The notes under the pieces were generated by a model that did not search any database, was not told the DNA's origin, and worked only from the letters and a program-made list of their open reading frames with translations. A stretch of DNA of 64,000 nt from Thermoproteota archaeon (lineage in GTDB: Archaea; Thermoproteota; EX4484-205; JAAOZP01), in assembly GCA_049700215.1 (NCBI GenBank), contig JBNAVT010000008.1:860-64859 (forward strand). Reading direction: 5' to 3'. Shown here one piece after another: positions 1 to 57,854 of this stretch (positions are counted from its first letter, which is position 1; each line of letters begins with the position of its first letter). The position numbers and the translations under genes were made by a program.

Positions 1-1848
1 AGCTTCGAGGAGGAGCTTGTTAGGACGGTTCTGCTAAGCGGCCTAACCGACGCTCAGGCCTTAGACGTGGTCAACACCCTTGCTAGGAACGTTGAGTGGC
101 TCAAGACGTTGAGTAGCAGGAGCATGGTTGAAGCAATCAGAAAAATAACTGATTACGTTGAGAAGGGGGAAATTGCTGAAGAGGCAGTTGAGAGGGTTAA
201 GAGGGAGAGCGAGGAGTACGTTAAGAACGTTAAGCTTGAGATAACCGGGTTCTGCAACTCCATCTCCGACGCCATGCTTGCGAACGAGGTTAATGACCTT
301 CTCAAGCACATCCTAAACGCACTTGGGCCCGATGATGCGAAATGGCTCCTTGACCTCTTGAGGAACGTTTACTACGAGGCACTAACCCAATCCCATGGTA
401 ATAGAGAGTTTGCGAATGCTAAGCTTAGAAGCGTTGTTGAAAGGGTGTTCAAGTATCCCGAGAGCAAGCTGCACGGCTGCAGGCTGGCCTCCGTTAAGAC
501 GTTGCAGCTGAAGAGCCTTGAGGAAGCGATCCTGGGAAAGACGCTGGAAGAAGCCCTTAGCTCGGAGGGCGAAGAGATAGTCGTCGACGGGTTTGAGAAA
601 ACAATACCTGAGTCCGGTTATGTAAGAGGCAGGAGGAAGCTTGAAAAAGGCCTCTACCTGGTTAGGGCGACTAGGAAGGAGGATGGAAAGGTTTTCGAGT
701 GGTCGAGCAGGAAGGAGGAAGATGGCGAAACCTTCGACACTTCGGTTCCAAAGAGATTTTTAAAGGAGCTAGCCGGAAAAGAAGTGGAAATAGCCATCGT
801 CAAATACGATTACTCACTACACTTTAAATTCAAGGGCTCAAACCTCTACTTCAGTCCAAGGGACGGGTTAATGGTGGAAGGAAGGGAGATAGAGTTAGAG
901 AGAGTTGAGCCGCTGAGCTGGAGTGAGAGGCACGGAGCATCAATAAAGGCAAAGCTTAAGCAGAGGAGCATACGTGGAGCCGAAATATACTTCGTGTTCT
1001 TCGAGGACGGAGACTTCGGCATTCTTTTCACCGGAGAATCTACGGATAGAGGAGTATGCAAGGCTACGTTGAGTATTGAAGGAAATTTGCTGATAATAGA
1101 GTACGAAGGTCATAAGTCAATCGTCCCGATCATCGTTCAGGAGTGGAAGGAAGGAGAGAAGTATTACCTTAACATTCTATTGGAGGGGAGGGGAAGGATT
1201 GAACTGGTTGAGAAGCTGAGGGAATTATTCGGATACTACAATACTGAAGCTTTGAGGAAGAAGATTGAGGAAGGCGAGCTAAAGCTGATAGCTTACTTTG
1301 ACAACGGAAAACATGCTACCTGCAGTATTAGAACTCTTGAGATCAACGTGCCTGAGGGGGCTGAGGTGCTGGAGTATATTGTGATTAGATCCTGCTTCAC
1401 ATTCTCAGAAACGCTAAGTGACGAACAGATTGAAGAAATAAAGAAAGCTTCTGATGTAAGACTGGGAGGCTATGGAAGAGATTGGGCTAGGGAAGCGATA
1501 GAGGCTGGTAAGCTCAGTGAAATGGATAAAGTGAAATTCATAAAGAAGGAAGCCTCAATCAAAAACAGAAAGGAGAAAGTAGACCTGGTTTTCATGAGGG
1601 AAGATGGTCGCCTCATAATTGTGGAAGTTAAGACAACCAAGATTTCTGATTACCTTAAGAATTATCTTGAGGATGGCCTGAAAGATTTAGAGGATTACAA
1701 GGCGTTGATTAATGAATATGGTCTCGACCTAGAAGATGTTAATTTGGGCATAAAGAGAGGAGAGGATATCGAAGCCTATGTAAGCATCTCAGTTTATTTC
1801 GATATAGAAAACAAGAAAGTGGACATTATATATAGTGTATTACCTTAG
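1..1848 (+). CDS. hypothetical protein, 5'-partial (frame open to window edge); C-terminal PD-(D/E)xK nuclease-like motif
   Basis: Reading frame is open from nt 1 in phase with the listed 67..1848 ORF. The C-terminal segment VDLVFMREDGRLIIVEVKTTK resembles the core of the restriction-endonuclease-like fold. No other recognisable domain. Confidence 0.45.
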   Translation, partial: SFEEELVRTVLLSGLTDAQALDVVNTLARNVEWLKTLSSRSMVEAIRKITDYVEKGEIAEEAVERVKRESEEYVKNVKLEITGFCNSISDAMLANEVNDLLKHILNALGPDDAKWLLDLLRNVYYEALTQSHGNREFANAKLRSVVERVFKYPESKLHGCRLASVKTLQLKSLEEAILGKTLEEALSSEGEEIVVDGFEKTIPESGYVRGRRKLEKGLYLVRATRKEDGKVFEWSSRKEEDGETFDTSVPKRFLKELAGKEVEIAIVKYDYSLHFKFKGSNLYFSPRDGLMVEGREIELERVEPLSWSERHGASIKAKLKQRSIRGAEIYFVFFEDGDFGILFTGESTDRGVCKATLSIEGNLLIIEYEGHKSIVPIIVQEWKEGEKYYLNILLEGRGRIELVEKLRELFGYYNTEALRKKIEEGELKLIAYFDNGKHATCSIRTLEINVPEGAEVLEYIVIRSCFTFSETLSDEQIEEIKKASDVRLGGYGRDWAREAIEAGKLSEMDKVKFIKKEASIKNRKEKVDLVFMREDGRLIIVEVKTTKISDYLKNYLEDGLKDLEDYKALINEYGLDLEDVNLGIKRGEDIEAYVSISVYFDIENKKVDIIYSVLP

Positions 1849-2519
1849 AGTGGGATGTAAATCCAGCCTCTTTCTTTCTCTAGTTTCTTAGCTTCTTCCT
1901 CTGTCAGTACAACAATTATCATAGGATTGCTAGAGACTTCGTAATATTGATATCCAGTATCCTTAATGATTTCATTCAACTCCTCCAAACCTATATCCAT
2001 GATGTAGTCATATCGTAAGACCATTCGGATGCTACGCCTCTTACCCTTAAAATCAAAGCTTACCTCCTCTACCGCCCACTTATATTCTAAAGGGATTATC
2101 CATTTACCACTTATATTCGTTGGTTGGAAAATGCCCCTCGATATCCTAGCAAGCCTCTTCAGGATAGCCACTCCAATCTCATCATTCAGCCACGTCTCTA
2201 TAGCTTCTTCCACAACTCTCTTAGCATCGAAGACTATTAATGCCCTGTCTATCCTAGCATCGCTACTTTTTATCCAATCCTTTTCGTGTTCCATGAGGCT
2301 CTCTCTTAGGATAACTCCATGAGGTCTCCCGATTTTTGACTTCCTCTTCTCATCCCACCAACTAGAGGAGTGATCTATTTCCCCGTTGAAAATCTTCTTT
2401 AATATCTCCTCTGAAGAAAGGTCGGAGTAGTCTTTGAAGAAATCCATCCTTCTAAGGTATTCTACCGAATTTACAAATCGCTTCCTAAGTTCAGACCTCA
2501 CCGTCCTATTAATAATCAT
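1845..2519 (-). CDS. hypothetical protein
   Basis: 224-aa ORF convergent with the upstream gene, overlapping by 4 nt. No recognisable motif. Confidence 0.35.
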   Translation of the reverse strand: MIINRTVRSELRKRFVNSVEYLRRMDFFKDYSDLSSEEILKKIFNGEIDHSSSWWDEKRKSKIGRPHGVILRESLMEHEKDWIKSSDARIDRALIVFDAKRVVEEAIETWLNDEIGVAILKRLARISRGIFQPTNISGKWIIPLEYKWAVEEVSFDFKGKRRSIRMVLRYDYIMDIGLEELNEIIKDTGYQYYEVSSNPMIIVVLTEEEAKKLEKERGWIYIPL

Positions 2520-2696
2520 GAAGCTCGCTTTTAAGCGTAACCATTATTTCTAGCGCGTCTTTATTAAGCTCTAACTATTTTATTCGATTGGAATCTAAGT
2601 TCTAAATCTCATTCATCAATAACTTAACAAAACATAATTAATGGATTGTTTGATTGGAAAAGTGGCGAGGGCCGGATCTGCTCGCGCGCGCACGCG

Positions 2697-2758
2697 CTTT
2701 GAACCAGCGACACCCCGGTCTTCAGCCGGGCGCTCTCCCAGGCTGAGCTACTTGGCGC
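2697..2758 (-). tRNA. tRNA-Phe(GAA)-like 5' fragment (positions ~1-60); 3' T-stem/acceptor strand absent - possible split-tRNA half or integration-derived tRNA fragment
   Basis: Minus strand reads GCGCCAAG-TA-GCTCAGCCTGGGAGAGC-G-CCCGG-CTGAAGA-CCGGG-GTGTC-GCTGG-TTCAAAG. This gives acceptor 5' strand, D-arm, anticodon arm with GAA, variable loop, T-stem 5' strand and T-loop. No complementary CCAGC/TTGGCGC follows. The overlapping ORF 2641..2847 translates to ...RFEPATPRS..., the typical tRNA reverse-complement artefact. Confidence 0.45.
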
Positions 2759-3885
2759 TTTCTAGCCTCGCCTCCTCGCCACGAGTTATCTTTTCGAGTA
2801 TCCGTATTTTAAACCTTTCTTCAGGGATTGAGGGTATGTTTTCTTAATATATATGTTGAATCTAAGCTTTGGTTTGACACCTGCTAATCTCTAAGTTTAG
2901 GTTATATAATACAGTTCTGTAAGCTGGTAACCTGTTGCTTCATAGTTCCCAAGCTTTCTCTTTCTAGGGTTAGAGATGTTTTTTATTGTTCTTCTGGTTT
3001 TTAGGCTGATTAAACGGGCTTTCCATCATTTTAGAGCCTCAGTGTTCCCAGCTTATGAAGAGAGGAGTAAAACTTTTTTAATATTGGTTGTATTGTTGTG
3101 ACGATGTTCCTTAACTTAAATGGTTTGTAAATTCGATTGACTAACTTCGTAAGTGAAACTTCTTTATGCGTGCCTTTTAAACTCGTTCTATCTTAACGTA
3201 AGTTGATGCTGATGATCCTTGGTTGTATTGCTCAGGCTGGTTTGAGTTTCTTATTCCCTGAGAGAAGCGAACCTGATGCCTTCTATAAACATGCTTTCTG
3301 CGCGCGCGAATGTTGTACGAATTGAGGTTGTACACCATGTCAACCTGAGGGTTGTTGGACTGTACCCAAATGTTATGGTTGTCCCGTGTGTCCCTGAGAT
3401 GGAGCAAAATATTCCATGGAGGTGTAGAAATAATGATAAAGCGTAGATATATGTCTTCTCTCAGTTTAGTCAGGTTGCTTATGGCGCCTCTGCTCATAGT
3501 CCTGTTTTCTATATGTATCTACGTTTATCTGCCGACACCAGTCAGTATTTTGGAAATTGGAGCACTTGTACTGTTTGCTTTCTTCGACTTGTCTTTAAGC
3601 ATGACTCAACAACTGAAAAGACGTACAATCATGTTTTTCGGTCTCTTATCCCTATCACTATCATACTTGCTAAATGTTTTCTGGTAGTTACTTTTACCTC
3701 AACATTCAGAAGTCATTCTCTTTCGCATCGTTTATTGTGACTTCAATTGTCTCGGCTGCTTTCTACATATTGTTAGCTTATAGATTGCTTGGAGCATATA
3801 AAGGGTGATGCATCGATGATCAAGTTTTCTTCTGAAGGTTCCTACGTGCAAGAAGATGGCTAAAAATATAGGGGGGTGGTCATGA

Positions 3886-4323
3886 ATGTTGGAAGAAATA
3901 GAGGGTGTAAAAGAATGGATACAGAAACCGTTTTCTTTTCAGCCACTCTGGCCTCTGGCGTTTGCTGCAATCATACTGGTCGTCATGATTGAAGCACCCA
4001 GCTATCTGTATGGGATAAGCCTTGGAGACTGGAGGTTCAGCGCATCCATCTTATCGTTTGCAATCGCTCTTTTCGTCGGTGCTCTCATTGAGCGATTTGG
4101 CGTCAAGAGCAGGGGTCTAACACTCCTCTCGTTCTCTCTTATTCGCCTCAAACATATTCTACGTACTCGGATTAACATCCCTTCTACCGATGAAATCGCA
4201 AGTGGAACTTGTAATATTCTCGCCGTTCATAGTCGCATCGATAGCTCTATTGCTTACGTATTCTCTCAAGATAGGCTACAACATGCTGAGGATAGAGAAG
4301 AAAGCTTGGACTTAGGTGAATGA
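3886..4323 (+). CDS. hypothetical small membrane protein (within AT-rich low-coding region)
   Basis: 145-aa ORF with two hydrophobic segments; no homology recognised. The surrounding 2850-4480 is AT-rich with only short ORFs. Confidence 0.2.
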   Translation: MLEEIEGVKEWIQKPFSFQPLWPLAFAAIILVVMIEAPSYLYGISLGDWRFSASILSFAIALFVGALIERFGVKSRGLTLLSFSLIRLKHILRTRINIPSTDEIASGTCNILAVHSRIDSSIAYVFSQDRLQHAEDREESLDLGE

Positions 4324-4493
4324 GCCGAAAAAGTGGTTCCTATTGTTTTTACTCGGGTTCTGGCTATCCAGTTCCCTATTAATGGGGTTCTATTAGTGTT
4401 GATGAACAATAAAGCATACATGCTATTTTAATTAGGCGGTTCTGATAGGAAGACATAAATCATGCCCATATTCCCCTTTTTGGAGATTCAGGT

Positions 4494-7229
4494 ATGAAAC
4501 ATGATTTCGGCGAGGACGAGTATCGCCTTGAGTTCCTGAGTGGAGGCGGGTTCGCTAGAAAGAGGTGTGTTAAATGCGGCAGGTTCTTCTGGACTCTCGA
4601 CCCTTCTAGGGAAGACTGTGGAGAGTCTCCCTGCTCGCCCTATACTTTCATAGGCAGGAGGGTGGGCAGGAGCATGGATGATCTGAGCCAAGTTAGGAAC
4701 GCGTTCCTGGGCTTCTTCAGGAAGAGGGGGCATGAGGTTGTTTCACCCTATCCTGTCGTATGCAGGTGGAGGGATGATCTTTACCTTACTGACGCGAGCA
4801 TAGTTGATTTCCAGCCTTATGTTACGGATGGCATTATTCCTCCCCCGGCTAATCCCCTAGTGATTTCCCAGCCATGTATACGTCTGGTTGACATTGACCT
4901 GGTTGGAAAGACTCTCGGGAGGCATCTCACTATTTTCGAAATGGGTGGGCACCATGCTTTCAACAGCGAGGAAAAAGAGGTCTACTGGAAGGAGGATACT
5001 GTGAGATACGGTTTTGAATTCTTCACGGGGGAGATGGGGGTTAAGGGTGAGGATCTTACTTTTGTGGAAAGCTCTTGGAGCGGGGGTGGAAACGCTGGGC
5101 CGTGCTTCGAAGTTATTTCACACGGTCTTGAGGTTGCGACCCTAGTCTTCATGAGGTATAAGGTTTATCCTGATGGTTCTCTGAGGGAGCTACCTATTCG
5201 AACGGTTGACACTGGATACGGGATGGAGAGGATAAACTGGCTTTTAACCGGCGCTCCCACAGGCTTCCATGCTTTCTACAGTAGGCTTCTCCAAGAAGCT
5301 TCTAAACTGGTGGATATCGAAGTTCCCCCTGAGCTCCTCAGGGAGTATGGGGTTAGGGTTTCCCTTTCTGAGAGTAAGTTCCTCAGCCCGGTGGAGAGGA
5401 TTAGGCTTGTCAGGGATCTGGGGCTCCCTGATTACTTCTCAGCTAAGCTTGAAGCGATGGAGAATGTTTTCAAGGCTCTGGATCATGTTAAGAGCCTAGT
5501 GTTCATTCTCTCAGAGGGCGTTGTGCCTTCTAACACTGGCGTGGGCTATCTGGCTAGGCTGCTCGTAAGGAAGACGGCCAGGGTCTTAGATAGGCTTGGC
5601 GCTACCTCTCTCTTACTCGACATGGTTTCATGGGAGGTTGACTACTGGGGCAGGGATTTTCCGAGTCTCAAAGGGCTTAAAGACAGTATTCTGAGGCTCG
5701 TCGAAATAGAGCTTAAAAAATACAGGAGGAGTGTTGAAGAGGGTGTTAGACACGTGGAGTCTCTTGTTAAAGAATCCAAGTCTCTAAGTGTTGAAAAGCT
5801 TGTTGAACTCTATGATTCTCACGGTGTTACGCCTGAGCAGGTTGCAGACTTTTTCTCGAAGAAAGGCGTTGAAGTAAGGATTCCGGAGGACTTTTACAGC
5901 ATGATAGCCTCCAGGCATAAACAGCCTAAGGGTCTTGAAGAGGAGGCTGTTACACTAGGTTTCGACGAGAAGGCTTTCCCCGAAACTGTAAAACACTACT
6001 ATGAGGATCCTGATTTGCTGGAGCTCGAGGCCAGGGTGCTGGGAGTCTTCGACGACAAGGTTGTTCTCGACCGGACGATCTTCTATCCTGAGGGCGGCGG
6101 CCAGCCTGCAGACGCCGGTAGGCTAGTATTCAACGGGAAGGAGGCCCTGGTAAGAGATGTTAAGAACTTGAATAATCGGATAATCCACTTCATAGAGGGG
6201 CCTGCCCCCAGAGTAGGCAGCGTTGTCAAAACGGTTGTTGACGCTGAAAGGCGTCTCCAGCTTAGAAGGGCTCACACGGCGACACACATTATAAACGCTG
6301 CCGCCAGAATAGTTCTAGGGAACCATGTTTGGCAAGCAGGCGCTCAGAAAGACACTGTTGAGTCCAGGCTTGACATAACCCATCCTCTTCCGCTTACTGA
6401 TGAAGAGATTGAGAAGATAGAGCGTAAGGCTAATGAAATAGCCCTGTTAAACATCGATGTTAAAGTACAGGTTTTACCTAGGGTCATCGCTGAGAAGGAA
6501 TATGGGTTCAGAATATACCAGGGTGGCGCTGTGCCAGGTAGGGAGCTCCGGATCATTAAGATAGACGGGTTTGACGCGGAGGCCTGCGGCGGGCTCCATG
6601 TTAACAAGACGGGTGACGTAGGTCTGGTGAAGATAGTTAGGGTTGAGAGGATTCAGGACGGGGTTGAAAGAATAGTGTTCCGGGCAGGAGTGTCCTCTCT
6701 GGATTACGTGAGATCGCTGGAAAACAAGATGTCTAGCCTGGAGAGCATACTCGGCGTCCCTAAGGATAAGATAGTTCAGGAGGCTGAGAGAGTCAAGAGC
6801 GAGTTGAAAAACCTGAGTAAGAAGATTGAGAGAATATTAGAGAGCCAGTTTGACGTTTTAGCGGATCAGCTGCTTTCAAAGGCTGTTGAGGAGTCCGGCA
6901 TTAGAATAGTGCTCTACAGTTCTGAAGATCTTGAAATAAACCATCTTATAAGTCTCGGCGAGAAAATCTCTAAGAAGGAGCCGAGCTCCGTAACAGTAGT
7001 AATGTCACCTATCCCAACTATGCAGTTCGCCGTGTTCGCAGGTGAAAAGGCTCTGGAGAAAGGTGTTGACTGCTCTCTGCTTGCACGCCGCATTCTTAGC
7101 GAAATCGGGGTCGGCGGGGGAGCCGGGGGCAGGAGAAACTTCGCGAAAGGAGGCTTAGCGGCCAAGGTTGACCCCGAATCCTTCCAATCAAAGGCTTTAA
7201 AAGCCGTAGGCAGTGTATTAAGTGGCTAA
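4494..7229 (+). CDS. alaS: alanine--tRNA ligase (AlaRS)
   Basis: 911 aa. Class II AlaRS catalytic core, editing-domain motif HTATHIINAAARIVLG...HVW, C-terminal DHHA1-like GGGAGGRRNFAKGG. Confidence 0.9.
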   Translation: MKHDFGEDEYRLEFLSGGGFARKRCVKCGRFFWTLDPSREDCGESPCSPYTFIGRRVGRSMDDLSQVRNAFLGFFRKRGHEVVSPYPVVCRWRDDLYLTDASIVDFQPYVTDGIIPPPANPLVISQPCIRLVDIDLVGKTLGRHLTIFEMGGHHAFNSEEKEVYWKEDTVRYGFEFFTGEMGVKGEDLTFVESSWSGGGNAGPCFEVISHGLEVATLVFMRYKVYPDGSLRELPIRTVDTGYGMERINWLLTGAPTGFHAFYSRLLQEASKLVDIEVPPELLREYGVRVSLSESKFLSPVERIRLVRDLGLPDYFSAKLEAMENVFKALDHVKSLVFILSEGVVPSNTGVGYLARLLVRKTARVLDRLGATSLLLDMVSWEVDYWGRDFPSLKGLKDSILRLVEIELKKYRRSVEEGVRHVESLVKESKSLSVEKLVELYDSHGVTPEQVADFFSKKGVEVRIPEDFYSMIASRHKQPKGLEEEAVTLGFDEKAFPETVKHYYEDPDLLELEARVLGVFDDKVVLDRTIFYPEGGGQPADAGRLVFNGKEALVRDVKNLNNRIIHFIEGPAPRVGSVVKTVVDAERRLQLRRAHTATHIINAAARIVLGNHVWQAGAQKDTVESRLDITHPLPLTDEEIEKIERKANEIALLNIDVKVQVLPRVIAEKEYGFRIYQGGAVPGRELRIIKIDGFDAEACGGLHVNKTGDVGLVKIVRVERIQDGVERIVFRAGVSSLDYVRSLENKMSSLESILGVPKDKIVQEAERVKSELKNLSKKIERILESQFDVLADQLLSKAVEESGIRIVLYSSEDLEINHLISLGEKISKKEPSSVTVVMSPIPTMQFAVFAGEKALEKGVDCSLLARRILSEIGVGGGAGGRRNFAKGGLAAKVDPESFQSKALKAVGSVLSG

Positions 7230-49835: not shown

Positions 49836-50063
49836 ATGTCTACAGAGGTTCTCTCAGTCAGAATAAGCGGGGAGCTAAAGAGAGAAGCTGAAAAATTAGG
49901 CATAGATGTGAAAAGCGTTGTCGAGAGGGCATTGGCCGATGCGGTGGAGCAGGCTAAAAGAAGAAAGCTTGAGGAAGCAATCAATATGCTGTTGAAGGAA
50001 ATGGGAGAAGTCTCTGACGACGAATGGGTAAGGGTAGTAAAGGAATGCCGCAGGGAAAGGTAG
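49836..50063 (+). CDS. antitoxin-like small protein (ribbon-helix-helix-type)
   Basis: 75-aa charged protein overlapping the downstream PIN gene. Confidence 0.45.
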   Translation: MSTEVLSVRISGELKREAEKLGIDVKSVVERALADAVEQAKRRKLEEAINMLLKEMGEVSDDEWVRVVKECRRER

Positions 50064-50461
50064 AGGCGGTTTTAGACACTTCAGCGCTATACCCCTTGCT
50101 TAAAAAACTAGGCGGGGGAGCTGCCTCATTATTGATGAGGCTTCTGATCCTTGATCTGACTAAGTATGAGTTGGGAAACATAGGTTGGAAAGAGTATAAA
50201 CTGGGGCACGTGAAAAATTGGGAGAGTCTGATGGAGCGATGGTCGAAAATAATAAGAGAGCTACCAGAGTATTCAATAGGCGTGGAGCATCTTAAAGAGG
50301 TGGGTGAGATCGCGGTTGAAAGGGGATTGTCGTTTTACGATGCTTCATATGTCTACGTGGCGGAGAAGCTGAACCTGAAGCTGATAACTGAAGACGAGGA
50401 AATGCTTAATAAATGTAAAAACTCAGTAGCTTTAGACAAGTTTCTAAAAACCAAGTCTTAG
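50024..50461 (+). CDS. PIN-domain toxin (VapC-like); true start probably internal Met (about 50045)
   Basis: AVLDTSAL...FYDASYVYVAEKLNLKLITEDEEM has the conserved PIN acidic residues. Confidence 0.7.
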   Translation: MGKGSKGMPQGKVEAVLDTSALYPLLKKLGGGAASLLMRLLILDLTKYELGNIGWKEYKLGHVKNWESLMERWSKIIRELPEYSIGVEHLKEVGEIAVERGLSFYDASYVYVAEKLNLKLITEDEEMLNKCKNSVALDKFLKTKS

Positions 50462-51432: not shown

Positions 51433-51909
51433 TTGAAACCTCCTTTTATGCTCCTCTTTTTCAGACCCTATTTCCTAGCGCGCGCATTCAAGACAACCAT
51501 ATTGATGTTCATCCTTATTGCAGCCAGTGCCATCTTCATCTATCCTTTTAAACGGCAAATAGCAAGCGTTTTTGCAAGCGACCCGGCCATACTTGACGAG
51601 ACGGAACGATTCCTGCAGTTAATATTACCAACGCTTCCTTTCTTCGGGCTCTGCGTGAACTCGATGTCAATTGCAAGAGGCTCAGGCCACACGGCTTTCC
51701 CAACAGCCATAGATATTGGAAGAATCTGGATAGTAAGAGTAGCTTTAGGGTATTTCTTAGCATTTATGTTTAACATGGGCTCCATGGGCATCTGGCTCTC
51801 GTTCTCGTTGAGCAATGTTGTAGGCGGGACAATTCTAATCCTGTGGGTGAAATACGGGAAATGGGATAAAGCCGTAATAAGGAAAAACAGCCTGAGACCA
51901 GGAGATTAG
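51433..51909 (+). pseudogene. MATE-family efflux transporter, C-terminal fragment
   Basis: The ARGSGHTAFPTAIDIGRIWIVRVALGYFLAFMF...GIWLS pattern corresponds to the last four TM helices of MATE/NorM. The N-terminal two-thirds are missing. Confidence 0.45.
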
Positions 51910-53785: not shown

Positions 53786-54174
53786 GGCTCTACTCCAAGT
53801 GCTTACAAGGGCTTCAAGGAGTTTGAAGAGTAGTATTACCCGGGAAGGCTGTGCGGCTTTGACGGTTGCAGGGATTGCTGTAACTATACCTATGTCGACG
53901 ATCTACTATTCTTCTCATAGCACGCACTAGACCGTTTTCTCGGCTTAGTAAATAGAGGACTGGTAGAGAGAAACCTGGCGAAATGACTGTGGGCTATGAG
54001 TTGATTTGGGGAGAAATTGACGATTATTATGAAGACATAAGCGTGCAGAAGGATGAAGCCTTAATATGGTTTAGACGGAAGCCTCTAGAAGTAAAAACTT
54101 GAAGCTTATTATTTGACTGTTATTCAACAAGCTTCTATTGATATGCATAGTGTTAATTTATTTGAGGAAAAAGT

Positions 54175-54250
54175 AGCGGGGGGTCGATTTGAACGACCGA
54201 TCTCAGGGTTATGAGCCCTGCGGCATAGACCTGGCTAGCCCACCCCGCTA
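54175..54250 (-). tRNA. initiator tRNA-Met (CAU), intron-less
   Basis: AGCGGGG-TG-GGCT..., A1:U72, anticodon arm CAGGG-CTCATAA-CCCTG with three G:C pairs, T-arm GGTCG-TTCAAAT-CGACC, discriminator A. Total 76 nt. Confidence 0.8.
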
Positions 54251-54261
54251 TATTTTTCTAT

Positions 54262-54282
54262 ATTTATTTCTTTTTGCTTATT
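54262..54282 (-). promoter_or_regulatory. putative TATA box for tRNA-iMet (AAATAAATATA on minus strand, about -20 to -30)
   Basis: AT-rich element at the expected distance upstream of the tRNA 5' end (54250). Confidence 0.35.
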
Positions 54283-54645
54283 GGGCTGCTCCGAATAGGG
54301 TGTTTCGAGTTGCGGGTATATAAAGTTTTTGCTGCGGTTTAGGCTTTAAGTAGGTGGGCTTGTTGTTTCACCCTTGGGTTAAAGGACTGATCGATATCGA
54401 CTTTAAACTGTCACATGTATTTGGCCATGGGCGTGTAATCTAAGGGCGGGGAGGTATAGGTTTTTCGACCATGGTCGCTAGCCTTTATAGTTGCATGGTT
54501 GGGAGTTTTGGTTTAATTCTCGGCTTTTTACGTGTGCAACTTATGGCTGTATTAGGGTTTTCCTGTCTATCGGCCCTTTTTCAGTTGTTTAAAGCGGTTT
54601 CAGAAAAGTTTATAAGCTACGTTTACGTTAACGTAGTAGTAAACG

Positions 54646-55119
54646 TTGAAAGGGATTAGGGTGGTCTATAGGAAGGGTTCAAGCGAGGTTGAGATAACTG
54701 GAGACAATGTTAACGATGTTAAGGAGATGATTAAGTATATTCCAGAGATATACCTGGAGCTTGAGAAGACTGAGAACAGGCTGGCTGAGTTAAAGTCGAC
54801 ACTGAGCCTTATACCTGGCTTCGTTAAGTACGATGAAGCCGGTAAGCCAATACTGTCCGTTAGAGAGGAGTTTCTAACGAGTAGGGAAGCAATAATTCTC
54901 ATCCTGAAGTTTGCTGAGAACGGTCTTAAATCGAGCGAGATAGGGGAGCAGCTCAGTAAGAGTGGCATCGTCTCAGTGGGCTACCCGTCTAGGCTCTCAG
55001 AGATGCTTAGGGAGGGGATCGTGACTAGGAACGAGCTTGGCAACTATGTTCTTACGGAGAAGGGGAAGATAATTGCCGACGAGATAACAACCAGGCTTGA
55101 GGAGGTGTCTTTAAGATGA
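54646..55119 (+). CDS. wHTH DNA-binding protein, paralog A (N-terminal small beta-domain + C-terminal winged helix)
   Basis: N-terminal IRVVYRKGSSEVEITGDNVNDVKEMIKYI is paralogous to the next gene's N-terminus. C-terminal EAIILILKFAENGLKSSEIGEQLSKSG...YPSRLSEMLREGIVTRNELGNYVLTEKG is wHTH-like. Confidence 0.5.
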   Translation: MKGIRVVYRKGSSEVEITGDNVNDVKEMIKYIPEIYLELEKTENRLAELKSTLSLIPGFVKYDEAGKPILSVREEFLTSREAIILILKFAENGLKSSEIGEQLSKSGIVSVGYPSRLSEMLREGIVTRNELGNYVLTEKGKIIADEITTRLEEVSLR

Positions 55120-55634
55120 GTGGACCGTTAACAATCAGGCTTGAAATACCTGACAAGAATATTAGGGTGGAGTTCGCAGGCGACGAGAACACGGTAATGA
55201 GAGACCTTCTCAAGTTTCTTTCAAACGTTTATCCCCGTTTAACTATTGTCGACAAGATAGTTTACACACCTGACTTGGAGACTCTTCTTTCAGCGATATC
55301 TCCCCATATCAGGATAAGCAGCGGCGACATAATTCTTCTGGGGGAGGAGTCGAAGACGACCGAGAGTAAAATCCTCTACCTGCTTGCAGGCTGCTACGCT
55401 GCTTCAAGATTCGGTTTACGTGAGAAAAGCAGTATGAGCGTTGAGGAGATGGTCAGGATGGTTACGAATATTTCCAAGAAGACTATTCAAAACACCTTGG
55501 TAGACCTTGTTAAGAAGGGGCTTGTGCTTAGGCAGGCTAGGGGAATGTTCGAAATATCGGTTAAGGGCATAATGCTTCTTTCAGGGGGTTTTGAAGGTGA
55601 AAAACCAGTCGACAAGCCTAATCCCGCTGGCTGA
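55116..55634 (+). CDS. wHTH DNA-binding protein, paralog B
   Basis: N-terminal LTIRLEIPDKNIRVEFAGDENTVMRDLLKFL. C-terminal SVEEMVRMVTNISKKTIQNTLVDLVKKGLVLRQARGMFEISVKG is wHTH-like. Start overlaps the previous stop. Confidence 0.5.
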   Translation: MSGPLTIRLEIPDKNIRVEFAGDENTVMRDLLKFLSNVYPRLTIVDKIVYTPDLETLLSAISPHIRISSGDIILLGEESKTTESKILYLLAGCYAASRFGLREKSSMSVEEMVRMVTNISKKTIQNTLVDLVKKGLVLRQARGMFEISVKGIMLLSGGFEGEKPVDKPNPAG

Positions 55635-56448
55635 TCTAAAGCAGCGTCGAGAAGCTCATGTCTTAGAGGGGAAGGAGATAAGGATTAAAATAAGCCGGAC
55701 TAGTGAGTTTAAACTCGGCAGGACTATAAGCATTGATTTCGAGGAGGCTTCTTCTCTGGAAAGCATTGTCGCAGTGGATGTCTCAACCGTTAAGATAGGG
55801 ATAAGCAGGCTGGGCGAGGTTCATGCTATCAGGGGTTCAACCGTTTTGAAAAAGCGGGGAGCGGTGAAGATAAATAGAACTAGGCCGATGATAGTGCTAG
55901 GCGGCATTTCCGACAGCCAGGTTTCTTTTGAACTAGAGGAGCAGTTGAAGAGCATTAGTTCAATCAGGAATTCGTTGATGCTGCTCGACGGGGATTTGAA
56001 TGAGATGGTGAACGTTAGCGGGCCGCTCGGGCTCTCGCGTTTTCTCACATCCGCCTGTAACACTTTAATATCGGTTTCAAAAGGCTTCGTAGACCCGTTT
56101 ATACGTCTACCAGAGGATTTCGACGTTTCTCCGTTTGTAGGCGAGATTCTTAACGGGAGAAGCCCAAGGGAATACTTGGTTAGGCTTAAGCCTGGAAGCC
56201 CTCTGCTGAAGGTGGAAGCCTACCCGGAGGTCGAGCTAGAGGAGATTAGTAGCCTACTGGCCTCCCTCATTCTTATTGATGGTGTTGACTACGGTTATCC
56301 TGAAGCGTTGAGGATCGCCCACATATATTCTAAGATACTTCCAGTAGAGGTTTTAACGCTGAAATGCGTCTTGCAGAAGAAGTTTGGAATAGAGGTTTTG
56401 AGGGAGATAGACAATAGGAAGATGCTTCTAGGAGGCTTCTGGAGTTGA
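55591..56448 (+). CDS. hypothetical protein (candidate divergent NurA-like/RNase-H-fold partner of the HerA-like ATPase)
   Basis: 285 aa with conserved-looking acidic strands IVAVDVSTVKIG, MLLDGDLNEM and LILIDGVDYGY. No confident family match by eye. Translationally coupled to its neighbours. Confidence 0.4.
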   Translation: MKVKNQSTSLIPLADLKQRREAHVLEGKEIRIKISRTSEFKLGRTISIDFEEASSLESIVAVDVSTVKIGISRLGEVHAIRGSTVLKKRGAVKINRTRPMIVLGGISDSQVSFELEEQLKSISSIRNSLMLLDGDLNEMVNVSGPLGLSRFLTSACNTLISVSKGFVDPFIRLPEDFDVSPFVGEILNGRSPREYLVRLKPGSPLLKVEAYPEVELEEISSLLASLILIDGVDYGYPEALRIAHIYSKILPVEVLTLKCVLQKKFGIEVLREIDNRKMLLGGFWS

Positions 56449-57854
56449 TAACGATACTGCGGAAGAATAGGGTGACCTACGAGCTGCTGGAAACCCCTGG
56501 CAGGGACAGGATTGTCGGAAGCTACTTAATACTTCTCGACAGTATTACACGGAGAAAGCTTCTTCTCCAAATAATAGACGTCAACTATCTTAGCATTCCT
56601 GGCGAGGTAGAGGAGATAATACGGATAAGCAAGAGGGAGGAATCCTACCAGGTTTTCGAGGAGGATGAAAACCTTAAGGAGATACTTGACGAGCTGATGG
56701 ATTCTAGAATATTAATATGCAAGGTTCGGGCAGCCTTCTCGTTAGATGATGAGACCATAGATTTTCAGTGGGCTCCCTCAAGGTTGAAGTCGAGAATCTA
56801 TGAGCCGAGCGCGGAGGAGTTGAACGAGTTGATTACAAGCAAGTACGCGATACCGGTTAAGATCAGCGACGACACAGAGGTGGATCTGAACGCTTTAGAC
56901 GGCGGTTTAACCCTGGTGATCGGTAAGAAGGGTTCGGGCAAGTCGAATCTCTCTAAAACATTGATAGCAAGGCTCTTGGAACACGGTGGGCGCTGTATAG
57001 TCTTTGACATAAACGGGGAATATGAGCCGGCTGCGATGAAAAGCAGGTTCCTAGTCTTAAAACCTGGTGAAAACATGTTTCTCAGTATACCTGGACTCGG
57101 GAAAGAGCTTTTCATAAATCTCATGGAAACCATTATGGGGTTGCCTCCCTCGTCAGTCTGGGAGCTGAGACGAATACTTGACAGTCTTGAGAACAGGAAT
57201 ATGTTGAGCCTTAAGAACCTTTGGAATGAGATAGTCTGCGGAAGGATTAATGACCTCGTTAAGGAAGCGCTTATCAGGAGGATAACGGTTCTGAGGGAAA
57301 GCGGCTTATTCAAGGACTCTGACGCGACAGACTTAGACAGGGTTTTTAAAGAGGCATCGAGTAAGGCTCTTATAGTAAACCTGAAGGGTTTACCGAAATC
57401 CTTTAGGCAGCTGATAGTTGAGACGGTTCTCAATAAGACTGTTAGGATGCTTGAGAACGGTGAGATAAAGCCACTCTTCCTTTTCGCGGAGGAGGCTCAA
57501 TCATACTTGGATGAGAAAGCATGGGAGGACTATATAACGCGGATGAGGCACATAGGGTTGTCGGTTGTCTTCATAACTAACGAGCCGGATAGCCTCATGA
57601 GCTTCGTGTACAGGCAGGCTGACAACTGTTTCATATTCAACCTGTTGAACGAGAACGATTTAAACTATATTTCGAAGATGTCTAAAATAGATGCTGAATC
57701 ACTTATTAGCCTTGTGCCCACTCTGCCCGTTGGCAAGTGTCTTGCATTTGGAAACGTCACTGGGAACATTCCTGTTATTTTGAATATACGTAGGGAAAAC
57801 GTGTTTGGAACAGGAGAGACTAGGAAAGTGCTTTTAGCGGTTCCTAGAAGCTGA
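56445..57854 (+). CDS. HerA-like (HAS-barrel + RecA-like, DUF87/FtsK-HerA superfamily) ATPase
   Basis: Walker A LTLVIGKKGSGKSNLSKTL and HerA-type Walker B PLFLFAEEAQSYLD (hhhhEEAH-like). About 150-aa N-terminal domain before the P-loop, as in HerA. 469 aa. Confidence 0.6.
   Translation: MITILRKNRVTYELLETPGRDRIVGSYLILLDSITRRKLLLQIIDVNYLSIPGEVEEIIRISKREESYQVFEEDENLKEILDELMDSRILICKVRAAFSLDDETIDFQWAPSRLKSRIYEPSAEELNELITSKYAIPVKISDDTEVDLNALDGGLTLVIGKKGSGKSNLSKTLIARLLEHGGRCIVFDINGEYEPAAMKSRFLVLKPGENMFLSIPGLGKELFINLMETIMGLPPSSVWELRRILDSLENRNMLSLKNLWNEIVCGRINDLVKEALIRRITVLRESGLFKDSDATDLDRVFKEASSKALIVNLKGLPKSFRQLIVETVLNKTVRMLENGEIKPLFLFAEEAQSYLDEKAWEDYITRMRHIGLSVVFITNEPDSLMSFVYRQADNCFIFNLLNENDLNYISKMSKIDAESLISLVPTLPVGKCLAFGNVTGNIPVILNIRRENVFGTGETRKVLLAVPRS

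Follow-up and report, generated by a model that had tools for sequence, protein, structure and literature searches.

The locus examined here raises the question of whether a HerA-type ATPase gene that lies near a tRNA gene, in company with two small putative DNA-binding proteins and an unknown partner, is an acquired module or part of the inherited chromosome of its host. The operon in question occupies positions 54646 to 57854 of a 64,000-nucleotide stretch (hereafter the window) of contig JBNAVT010000008.1 from a Thermoproteota archaeon. A first-pass annotation of this DNA had seen in it a HerA standing alone, paired with a novel effector and probably gained at a tRNA site, and had suggested a role in antiviral defense. 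We find instead that it is the host's own nurA-herA operon for DNA-end processing, in the version carried by Candidatus Brockarchaeota, and that it is chromosomal and vertically inherited and was not acquired. Our best explanation of the whole, an inherited nurA-herA operon in which the two small winged helix-turn-helix (wHTH) proteins, wHTH-A and wHTH-B, act as operator-binding autoregulators, is one to which we assign a probability of about 0.6.

The four co-directional genes were recovered by our open reading frame (ORF) call exactly where the first-pass annotation had placed them:

54646..55119, plus strand, wHTH-A gene, 157 aa
55116..55634, plus strand, wHTH-B gene, 172 aa
55591..56448, plus strand, nurA-like gene, 285 aa
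56445..57854, plus strand, herA-like gene, 469 aa

Consecutive ORFs overlap by 4, 44, and 4 nt, and the 3′ end of herA shares 11 nt with a convergent enolase gene. The nuclease and ATPase genes are co-transcribed and translationally coupled. Related loci examined for comparison carry labels in the style of L001, and L004 is the Brockarchaeota locus used for the comparison of identities.

Predicted identity of the nuclease and the ATPase

From its sequence, we identify the 285-aa unknown partner as a divergent NurA nuclease, possibly with an altered HerA interface. The earlier guess that it might be a divergent NurA or RNase H-like nuclease is thus borne out, both by profile links and by an invariant catalytic set. 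A word-indexed search with the protein returned 29 homolog clusters, the named ones all from Brockarchaeota or Thermoproteota metagenome-assembled genomes (MAGs), and one cluster carries the NCBI name NurA. Of 19 close homologs, 13 give Pfam NurA matches below the threshold, as does the protein itself. An exhaustive profile search with the family recovered 157 relatives, with a score gap from 517 down to 108 bits or less. Some of the distant relatives clear the Pfam NurA threshold (P0060 at 28.8 bits and P0072 at 22.7 bits), and Bathyarchaeia genes in the orthologous position bear precomputed PF09376 matches. When the broadened family profile was compared with the Protein Data Bank (PDB), the sole match was 2YGK, the NurA of S. 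solfataricus, at a weak E value of 0.023; the alignment spans the DGS motif, placing D133 on Sso D133, and sets GYPetLRlAH on Sso GYPFPLLKAH. Searches of the PDB with phmmer and with a narrow profile of the protein yielded nothing relevant.

Residue conservation was assessed in an alignment of 39 sequences sharing 21 to 82% identity, in which D63, P99, E114, D133, G134, K164, Y236, P237, and H244 are invariant. In published work on SsoNurA, D58, E116, and D133 are catalytic and K202 and Y298 form an essential pair, and H411 is reported as important in PfNurA. The six residues listed below are, in order, the counterparts of Sso D58, E116, D133, K202, and Y298 and of Pf H411, with the register of the glutamate being approximate.

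55777-55779, plus strand, NurA D63, predicted catalytic or essential residue
55930-55932, plus strand, NurA E114, predicted catalytic or essential residue
55987-55989, plus strand, NurA D133, predicted catalytic or essential residue
56080-56082, plus strand, NurA K164, predicted catalytic or essential residue
56296-56298, plus strand, NurA Y236, predicted catalytic or essential residue
56320-56322, plus strand, NurA H244, predicted catalytic or essential residue

The partners Mre11, Rad50, and NurA had all been reported as absent. This holds for Mre11 and Rad50, neither of which was found within the 64-kb window, including a motif check of its large ORFs, but not for NurA, which the 285-aa protein represents in divergent form.

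The 469-aa protein can be assigned with confidence to the HerA family of ATPases, as had been proposed. Its Pfam DUF87/HerA match (PF01935) scores 53.3 bits, well over the cut-off of 23.2, with an E value of 5.3e-14, and its nucleotide-binding motifs are located as follows:

56922-56945, plus strand, Walker A motif, G160-KKGSGKS167
57477-57494, plus strand, Walker B motif, F345-LFAEE350

Residues G160, K162, G165, K166, and S167 of the former and F345, F347, A348, E349, and E350 of the latter are invariant in 18 members of the ATPase clade and align with the motifs of 4D2I, the S. solfataricus HerA. This structure was also the top PDB match of the 18-member clade profile (E 1.9e-16) and outscored every anti-phage HerA in the same search. 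In a comparison with the architecture of repair HerA (HAS barrel, ATPase core, and helical insertion), profile positions 70-471 align to residues 53-465 of the 4D2I chain, and approximately the first 70 residues are unaligned. Neither NCBIfam equivalog model was satisfied (NF040937, 46 bits with a cut-off of 800; NF040819, 15 bits with a cut-off of 970), and therefore the protein represents a separate HerA clade rather than an equivalog. The ATPase also matches PADLOC mad8 (3.4e-22), several defense HerA models, and in part NCBIfam HerA_antiphage; the PADLOC matches are accounted for by the HerA ATPase core that these proteins have in common.

Two paralogous winged-helix proteins

The two small proteins had been described as paralogs with a C-terminal winged helix, and both statements hold. 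wHTH-A begins with a beta-beta-alpha module, has a beta-hairpin in its middle part, and ends in a winged helix; of the four operon proteins, it shows the highest conservation when the window is compared with L004. Its TTG start is backed by homologs that begin two to three residues ahead of the conserved first strand. wHTH-B has an N-terminal half (residues 1-75) with the order b-b-a-a-a-b-b, a winged helix at residues 82-156, and a disordered tail whose coding region overlaps the start of NurA. The C-terminal winged helix was confirmed structurally; fold searches with a predicted wHTH-B model returned generic winged helices alone, and its N-terminal half, which like that of wHTH-A has no assigned fold, gave no match, including among transcription-factor structures.

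A BLASTP comparison of wHTH-A with wHTH-B detects no similarity (E 43). Iterated profiles of the two, built from the families at related loci, converge on each other, and profile-profile alignment by hhalign joins them over their full length (144 columns) with 99.5% probability and an E value of 1.5e-22, by which we judge them to be true paralogs. The family divides into four subgroups, namely a wB type (n = 86), a wA type (n = 54), a type transcribed divergently from nurA, invariably from the other strand (n = 29), and a fourth type (n = 14). A Pfam scan of 41 members gave scattered weak matches to generic wHTH families, with HVO_A0261_N appearing in 14, and PADLOC likewise gave weak wHTH matches only. 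We found no description of this family or of its promoter motifs in the searchable literature, which is not proof of absence, and the Brockarchaeota genome paper is silent on DNA repair.

A conserved operator-like element at the promoter

A predicted archaeal promoter and a candidate operator lie immediately upstream of wHTH-A:

54602-54608, plus strand, purine-rich B recognition element (BRE) AGAAAAG, by sequence inspection
54609-54615, plus strand, TATA box TTTATAA, by sequence inspection
54617..54647, plus strand, operator-like element CTACGTTTACGTTAACGTAGTAGTAAACGTT, ending on the first base of the TTG start codon

The center of the TATA box is approximately 34 nt from the start codon, and therefore the mRNA is expected to be leaderless or to have a very short leader, given the transcription start site (TSS) that this spacing implies. 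In an alignment of the 230-nt regions preceding wHTH-A in 14 Brockarchaeota loci, approximately 75 nt are near-invariant, whereas the distal part is unalignable. The near-invariant stretch includes AGAAAAG-TTTATAA followed by CTACGTTTACGTTAACGTAGTAGTAAACGT, whose last base is the T that opens the TTG start codon. Within the operator-like element, ACGT is repeated every 6 nt, and a perfect palindrome, TACGTTAACGTA (54624-54635), is enclosed by the inverted arms ACGTTTAC (54619-54626) and GTAAACGT (54639-54646). A 28-mer of the element is exact in 13 Brockarchaeota loci, each time abutting the start codon. The 12-mer TACGTTAACGTA occurs once in the window, where 0.02 occurrences are expected, and clusters of the ACGT motif are essentially exclusive to the wHTH-A promoter in 323 kb of Brockarchaeota sequence.

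Motif counts in three sets of promoter regions were as follows:

Brockarchaeota, upstream of wHTH-A: TACGT/ACGTA, 59 occurrences where 2.2 are expected (27-fold), in 19 of 19 regions
Nearest non-Brockarchaeota co-directional operons: TACGT/ACGTA, 34 occurrences where 2.9 are expected, in 13 of 31 regions
Intergenic regions between a divergent paralog and nurA: TTG[CT]GCA / TGC[GA]CAA, 46 occurrences where 0.7 are expected, in 24 of 26 regions

Where a paralog is divergent from nurA, as in Nitrososphaeraceae among others, the TTG[CT]GCA..TGC[GA]CAA palindrome of the intergenic region abuts the TATA box of the nurA-herA genes. Each wHTH subfamily is thus accompanied by a promoter palindrome of its own. 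Because the small proteins have a winged-helix fold and the palindromes are both exclusive to the promoters and specific to the subfamilies, the proteins are most likely dedicated operator-binding regulators, and they may be subunits of the enzyme as well.

Lineages differ in where the ACGT repeats lie with respect to the TATA box. They are downstream of it in Brockarchaeota and in L019, L023, and L042 (in L042 at approximately 6790-6824, where TTTACG is present four times), and they are upstream of or overlap the BRE in L020, L022, L025, L051, and L070. Because the position varies by lineage, the logic of control, repression versus activation, may differ as well. Separately, a scan for sigma-70 promoters and intrinsic terminators gave results at the level of chance and was set aside as irrelevant for an archaeon.

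The same 31 nt might instead function as RNA, forming a 5′ hairpin that takes in the first base of the start codon and governs translation or the stability of the mRNA. An 8-bp hairpin is indeed possible (-11.6 kcal/mol; z = -2.4 relative to shuffled sequences), and the invariance reaches into the first codons. However, the TATA box at 54609-54615 would place the expected TSS, at the usual archaeal spacing, inside or after the element and leave most of it untranscribed, and a role as RNA is less likely because of this position. An Rfam scan of the leader region matched the tRNA alone, the element is invariant and so precludes covariation, and in related lineages the ACGT repeats precede the TATA box, a position in which they would be unable to act as RNA. 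We therefore judge the RNA hypothesis to be improbable.

Inheritance, synteny, and distribution

The suggestion that the module was acquired rested on its location in an 860-bp gap (53786-54645, behind an apiosidase-like gene) that contains a tRNA gene, and this tRNA gene was confirmed:

54173-54249, minus strand, tRNA-Met(CAT), initiator-like, by tRNA scan; a conserved upstream neighbor outside the module

By inspection, the tRNA has an A1:U72 pair and a GGG:CCC anticodon stem, features that fit the archaeal initiator type, and its gene is approximately 400 nt upstream of the operon. It occupies the same relative position in 12 of the 15 Brockarchaeota loci scanned. Downstream, the Brockarchaeota operon is always followed by genes for enolase, a small ORF, TopoVI-B, a KH protein, RIO1, and eIF1A, and this synteny holds down to 60% NurA identity. 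The order tRNA-operon-enolase-TopoVI-B-KH-RIO1-eIF1A is therefore conserved across Brockarchaeota, which is not what a stand-alone HerA acquired at the tRNA with a novel effector would predict. When presence and absence were compared on the two sides of the tRNA, the operon proved constant and the polymorphism lay on the far side, with apiosidase and MatE genes in some relatives and a LAGLIDADG gene with unknown genes in others. We reject the hypothesis of acquisition at the tRNA, since even the junction between the tRNA gene and the operon is conserved.

Two further observations concern this tRNA gene. ARAGORN detected no tRNA-Met upstream of the operon in L001, L006, or L011, whose upstream regions are unalignable with the window, although the L006 NurA is 96% identical to that of the window; the gene may have moved or been lost in some Brockarchaeota lineages. 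In L003, L004, and L005, which represent more divergent Brockarchaeota, a run of co-directional genes without Pfam matches, together with a LAGLIDADG_3 protein (approximately 900-6610), replaces the apiosidase/MatE block; a distance of 16 nt separates it from the 3′ end of the initiator-like tRNA-Met gene (minus strand, 6626-6702). This run may be an integrated element.

Identities between the window and L004 are 91% for wHTH-A, 89% for TopoVI-B, 82% for the ATPase, 82% for enolase, 79% for RIO1, 73.5% for wHTH-B, 69% for the KH protein, and 61% for NurA. The operon proteins are thus on par with their neighbors, and therefore the operon evolves at housekeeping rates. A scan of window composition revealed no break in GC content or skew at the operon.

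To establish the distribution of the module, we scanned GTDB and found 363 species genomes with a relative bearing GYP[ED]xL[RK][LI]AH, the best 80 of which were examined as loci. Of these 80, 13 are Brockarchaeota genomes and most of the others are Bathyarchaeia, with Nitrososphaeraceae and Hecatellales also represented. The module recurs in all 80 loci, and NurA lies next to the ATPase in every examined locus whose contig extends past NurA, and one to four small wHTH paralogs lie upstream of NurA in nearly all of them. Brockarchaeota have exactly two, both co-directional, and in Nitrososphaeraceae and many Bathyarchaeia the paralog nearest nurA is divergently transcribed. In a reciprocal test, three of three independently found small-protein homologs were located directly upstream of a Pfam-recognized NurA and a DUF87 ATPase. 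Other recurrent neighbors are housekeeping genes (GatE, NUDIX, and the DHOD Fe-S subunit), and a motif scan of 86 loci revealed no Mre11-like or Rad50-like ORF. These data point to a distinct HerA-NurA clade common to Bathyarchaeia, Brockarchaeota, and Nitrososphaeraceae. The archaeal-type module is also present on contigs that bear the names of bacterial MAGs, Acidiferrales, Acidoferrum, and Methylomirabilota (L039, L059, and protein P0293), which are probably mis-binned Bathyarchaeia contigs and not genuine bacterial cases.

These findings also bear on the proposal that the module is a HerA-plus-nuclease system for defense against viruses or plasmids, of the Sir2-HerA, DUF4297-HerA, TdpAB, or MADS type, acquired at the tRNA gene. 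In its favor, the ATPase matches PADLOC mad8 and defense HerA models, HerA-nuclease pairs recur in defense, and a tRNA gene is 400 nt upstream. However, the synteny is phylum-wide, the divergence rates and the neighbors in all lineages are those of housekeeping genes, and the variable DNA lies past the tRNA. Searches of viral contigs identified no relatives of the module, and those of plasmids no meaningful one; no compositional anomaly is present, PADLOC has no match for the nuclease, and the top structural relative of the ATPase is a repair HerA rather than a defense HerA. On the grounds of synteny, evolutionary rates, neighbors, and the absence of viral or plasmid copies, the defense hypothesis is largely refuted, and we consider it highly improbable. 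The operon is instead conserved and syntenic, with the housekeeping role known for HerA-NurA, DNA-end resection.

Proposed mechanism and the role of the small proteins

By analogy with the Sulfolobus and Pyrococcus enzymes, a HerA hexamer would translocate DNA with ATP and feed it to a NurA dimer, which would degrade one or both strands. The end resection performed by such a complex, whose formation is predicted on the same grounds, would serve homologous recombination. wHTH-A and wHTH-B would jointly, perhaps as a hetero-oligomer, occupy the palindrome of ACGT hexamer repeats that follows the TATA box and precedes the start codon and thereby autoregulate the whole operon; the winged-helix fold, the order of the genes, and the co-occurrence of proteins and motifs suggest both the binder and the direction of control. 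Their N-terminal half may serve in oligomerization or signal sensing, and a dangerous helicase-nuclease could plausibly be kept repressed until a signal reaches this half.

Several observations weigh against this explanation. With regard to the nuclease, the 285-aa protein scores 15.1 bits with Pfam NurA (PF09376), short of the threshold of 21, and matches in its C-terminal part alone. An AlphaFold2 model built from the 19 close homologs has a predicted local distance difference test (pLDDT) score of 41 and is too poor for a fold search, although its order of secondary structure (four strands, helix, strand, helices, strand) is compatible with an RNase H/PIWI-like fold. In addition, I295 and F300 of SsoNurA form a published hydrophobic patch that binds HerA, and in the GYP..AH register the corresponding positions of the 285-aa NurA are acidic (D/E233 and the invariant E238), and therefore the HerA-NurA interface may differ. 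With regard to the small proteins, the operator-like element could be bound by an unrelated factor, and two to four paralogous regulators would be unusual for a two-enzyme operon. Moreover, wHTH-A exceeds TopoVI-B in conservation and is coupled to the enzyme genes, and subunits of a stoichiometric complex would look alike in these respects.

The last of these points leads to a second explanation, in which a HerA-NurA machine has four components, wHTH-A and wHTH-B being its structural or targeting subunits, and promoter binding is secondary or is performed by another factor. A wHTH heterodimer would bind duplex DNA or its ends, recruit or gate the helicase-nuclease, and replace Mre11-Rad50 functionally in the lineages concerned. 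Such a role is consistent with the translational coupling through overlaps of 4 to 44 nt, with the 91% identity of wHTH-A where NurA has 61%, with the presence of two to four paralogs per locus, and with an extra N-terminal half that matches no transcription-factor structure. Mre11 and Rad50 are adjacent in 0 of 86 loci, and the acidic residues in the HerA-binding patch of NurA leave room for a bridged or altered interface. Nevertheless, each subfamily has its specific palindromes precisely at the operon promoters and, over 323 kb, essentially at no other place, as dedicated regulators predict, and a general DNA-end factor would have no need of a palindrome at a promoter. The divergent orientation of the paralog nearest nurA in Nitrososphaeraceae and many Bathyarchaeia is, furthermore, a classic regulator arrangement. 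We thus regard an exclusive or primary role as subunits as possible but doubtful, while noting that regulator and subunit roles are not mutually exclusive.

A third explanation combines the two roles, and we offer it tentatively, as an idea that is rather unlikely to be correct in full. The wHTH proteins might be obligatory partners of an Mre11-Rad50-independent HerA-NurA, functioning both as the switch of the operon and, through their N-terminal half, as a DNA loader or gate. It is with similar reserve that we would extend this system to a host range of Bathyarchaeia, Brockarchaeota, and soil ammonia-oxidizing archaea. Equally speculative is a likeness in concept to the FtsK gamma winged helix that reads KOPS (FtsK orienting polar sequences), by which the wHTH proteins might act as a sequence- or signal-directed loader.

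Surroundings of the operon

The remainder of the window is an ordinary archaeal chromosome, with genes for AlaRS, LeuRS, HisRS, ABC transporters, enolase, TopoVI-B, and RIO1. Several smaller features were recorded:

49836-50461, plus strand, overlapping gene pair encoding a 75-aa antitoxin-like protein (weak CcdA match, E 0.003) and then a 145-aa PIN-domain protein (PF01850, 35.1 bits, over threshold)
51433-51909, plus strand, 158-aa ORF matching just the end of a MatE repeat; the syntenic gene in L001 encodes 471 aa
52015-52344, minus strand, 109-aa ORF with approximately 28 residues that are Glyoxalase-like; the intact gene in L002 encodes 127 aa
59173-59499, minus strand, 108-aa ORF between enolase and TopoVI-B, without a Pfam match

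The gene pair looks like a type II toxin-antitoxin system of the VapBC kind. The 158-aa and 109-aa ORFs are apparent remnants that could reflect gene decay or assembly frameshifts in the MAG. The position of the 108-aa ORF is kept across Brockarchaeota with 65 to 87% identity, and its hydrophobic C-terminal half suggests a small membrane protein.

Significance

To our knowledge, HerA-NurA has been studied almost solely in hyperthermophiles, where its genes lie beside those for Mre11-Rad50. HerA-NurA itself is known; what is new here is the uncharacterized pair of putative DNA-binding partners and, at the promoter, the conserved element that resembles an operator. A distinct HerA-NurA clade is common to mesophilic and moderately thermophilic lineages, and at least its Brockarchaeota NurA escapes standard annotation, and the arrangement provides testable hypotheses on the control of a potentially genome-destroying helicase-nuclease. 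Soil ammonia oxidizers such as Nitrososphaera viennensis can be cultivated, and their family carries the module. A false lead is also removed, in that the operon is not a new defense system. Should the combined loader and switch explanation be true, the module would be a new system of four components for the processing of DNA ends, and these lineages would have their first dedicated regulator of recombinational repair.

Comparison with known systems

Canonical archaeal HerA-NurA systems, as known from S. solfataricus and P. furiosus (PDB 4D2I, 2YGK, and 3TAI), likewise have nuclease and ATPase genes that are adjacent and coupled. The ATPase described here aligns with 4D2I over nearly its full length and shares the Walker A and B motifs and the "EE" glutamates of Walker B, and the nuclease shares the D-E-D triad, the K/Y pair, and the histidine of GYP..AH. 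In contrast to the canonical systems, the locus is not part of an mre11-rad50-herA-nurA operon, NurA is short (285 aa) and below the Pfam threshold, the I295/F300 patch is acidic, and the ATPase reaches 46 bits where the equivalog cut-off is 800. The wHTH paralogs and the putative dedicated operator are further differences.

Bacterial HerA-NurA pairs that are unlinked to Mre11-Rad50, as in Deinococcus radiodurans and with Thermus HepA, belong to another clade, and we know of no wHTH partner family reported for them. Another counterpart is the module of Bathyarchaeia and Nitrososphaeraceae, which has an orthologous NurA with GYP[ED]xL[RK][LI]AH, an orthologous ATPase of 35 to 41% identity, and the small wHTH family upstream. 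It differs in having one to four paralogs, often including the divergent subfamily with a TTGCGCA-type palindrome, and a longer NurA (340-385 aa) that is recognized by Pfam, whereas Brockarchaeota have the ACGT-repeat operator-like element. Genome papers on ammonia-oxidizing archaea annotate just a "HerA-NurA pair" and leave the partners unmentioned (PMC5797428, PMC7554672); we assume that this pair corresponds to the present clade.

Anti-phage HerA systems (Sir2-HerA, DUF4297-HerA, TdpAB, and MADS mad8) resemble the operon in combining a HerA ATPase, of partial core similarity, with a nuclease or NADase effector. However, their effectors are not NurA and they are patchily distributed in defense islands, whereas the present operon is syntenic and flanked by housekeeping genes. 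Finally, the proposed regulators may be compared with autoregulators of the ArsR/MarR type that are encoded first in their operons. Unlike these, wHTH-A and wHTH-B are two paralogs with an extra N-terminal half of approximately 75 residues, and where ArsR/MarR-type operators usually have half-sites spaced by approximately 10 bp, the present element has an ACGT periodicity of 6 nt.

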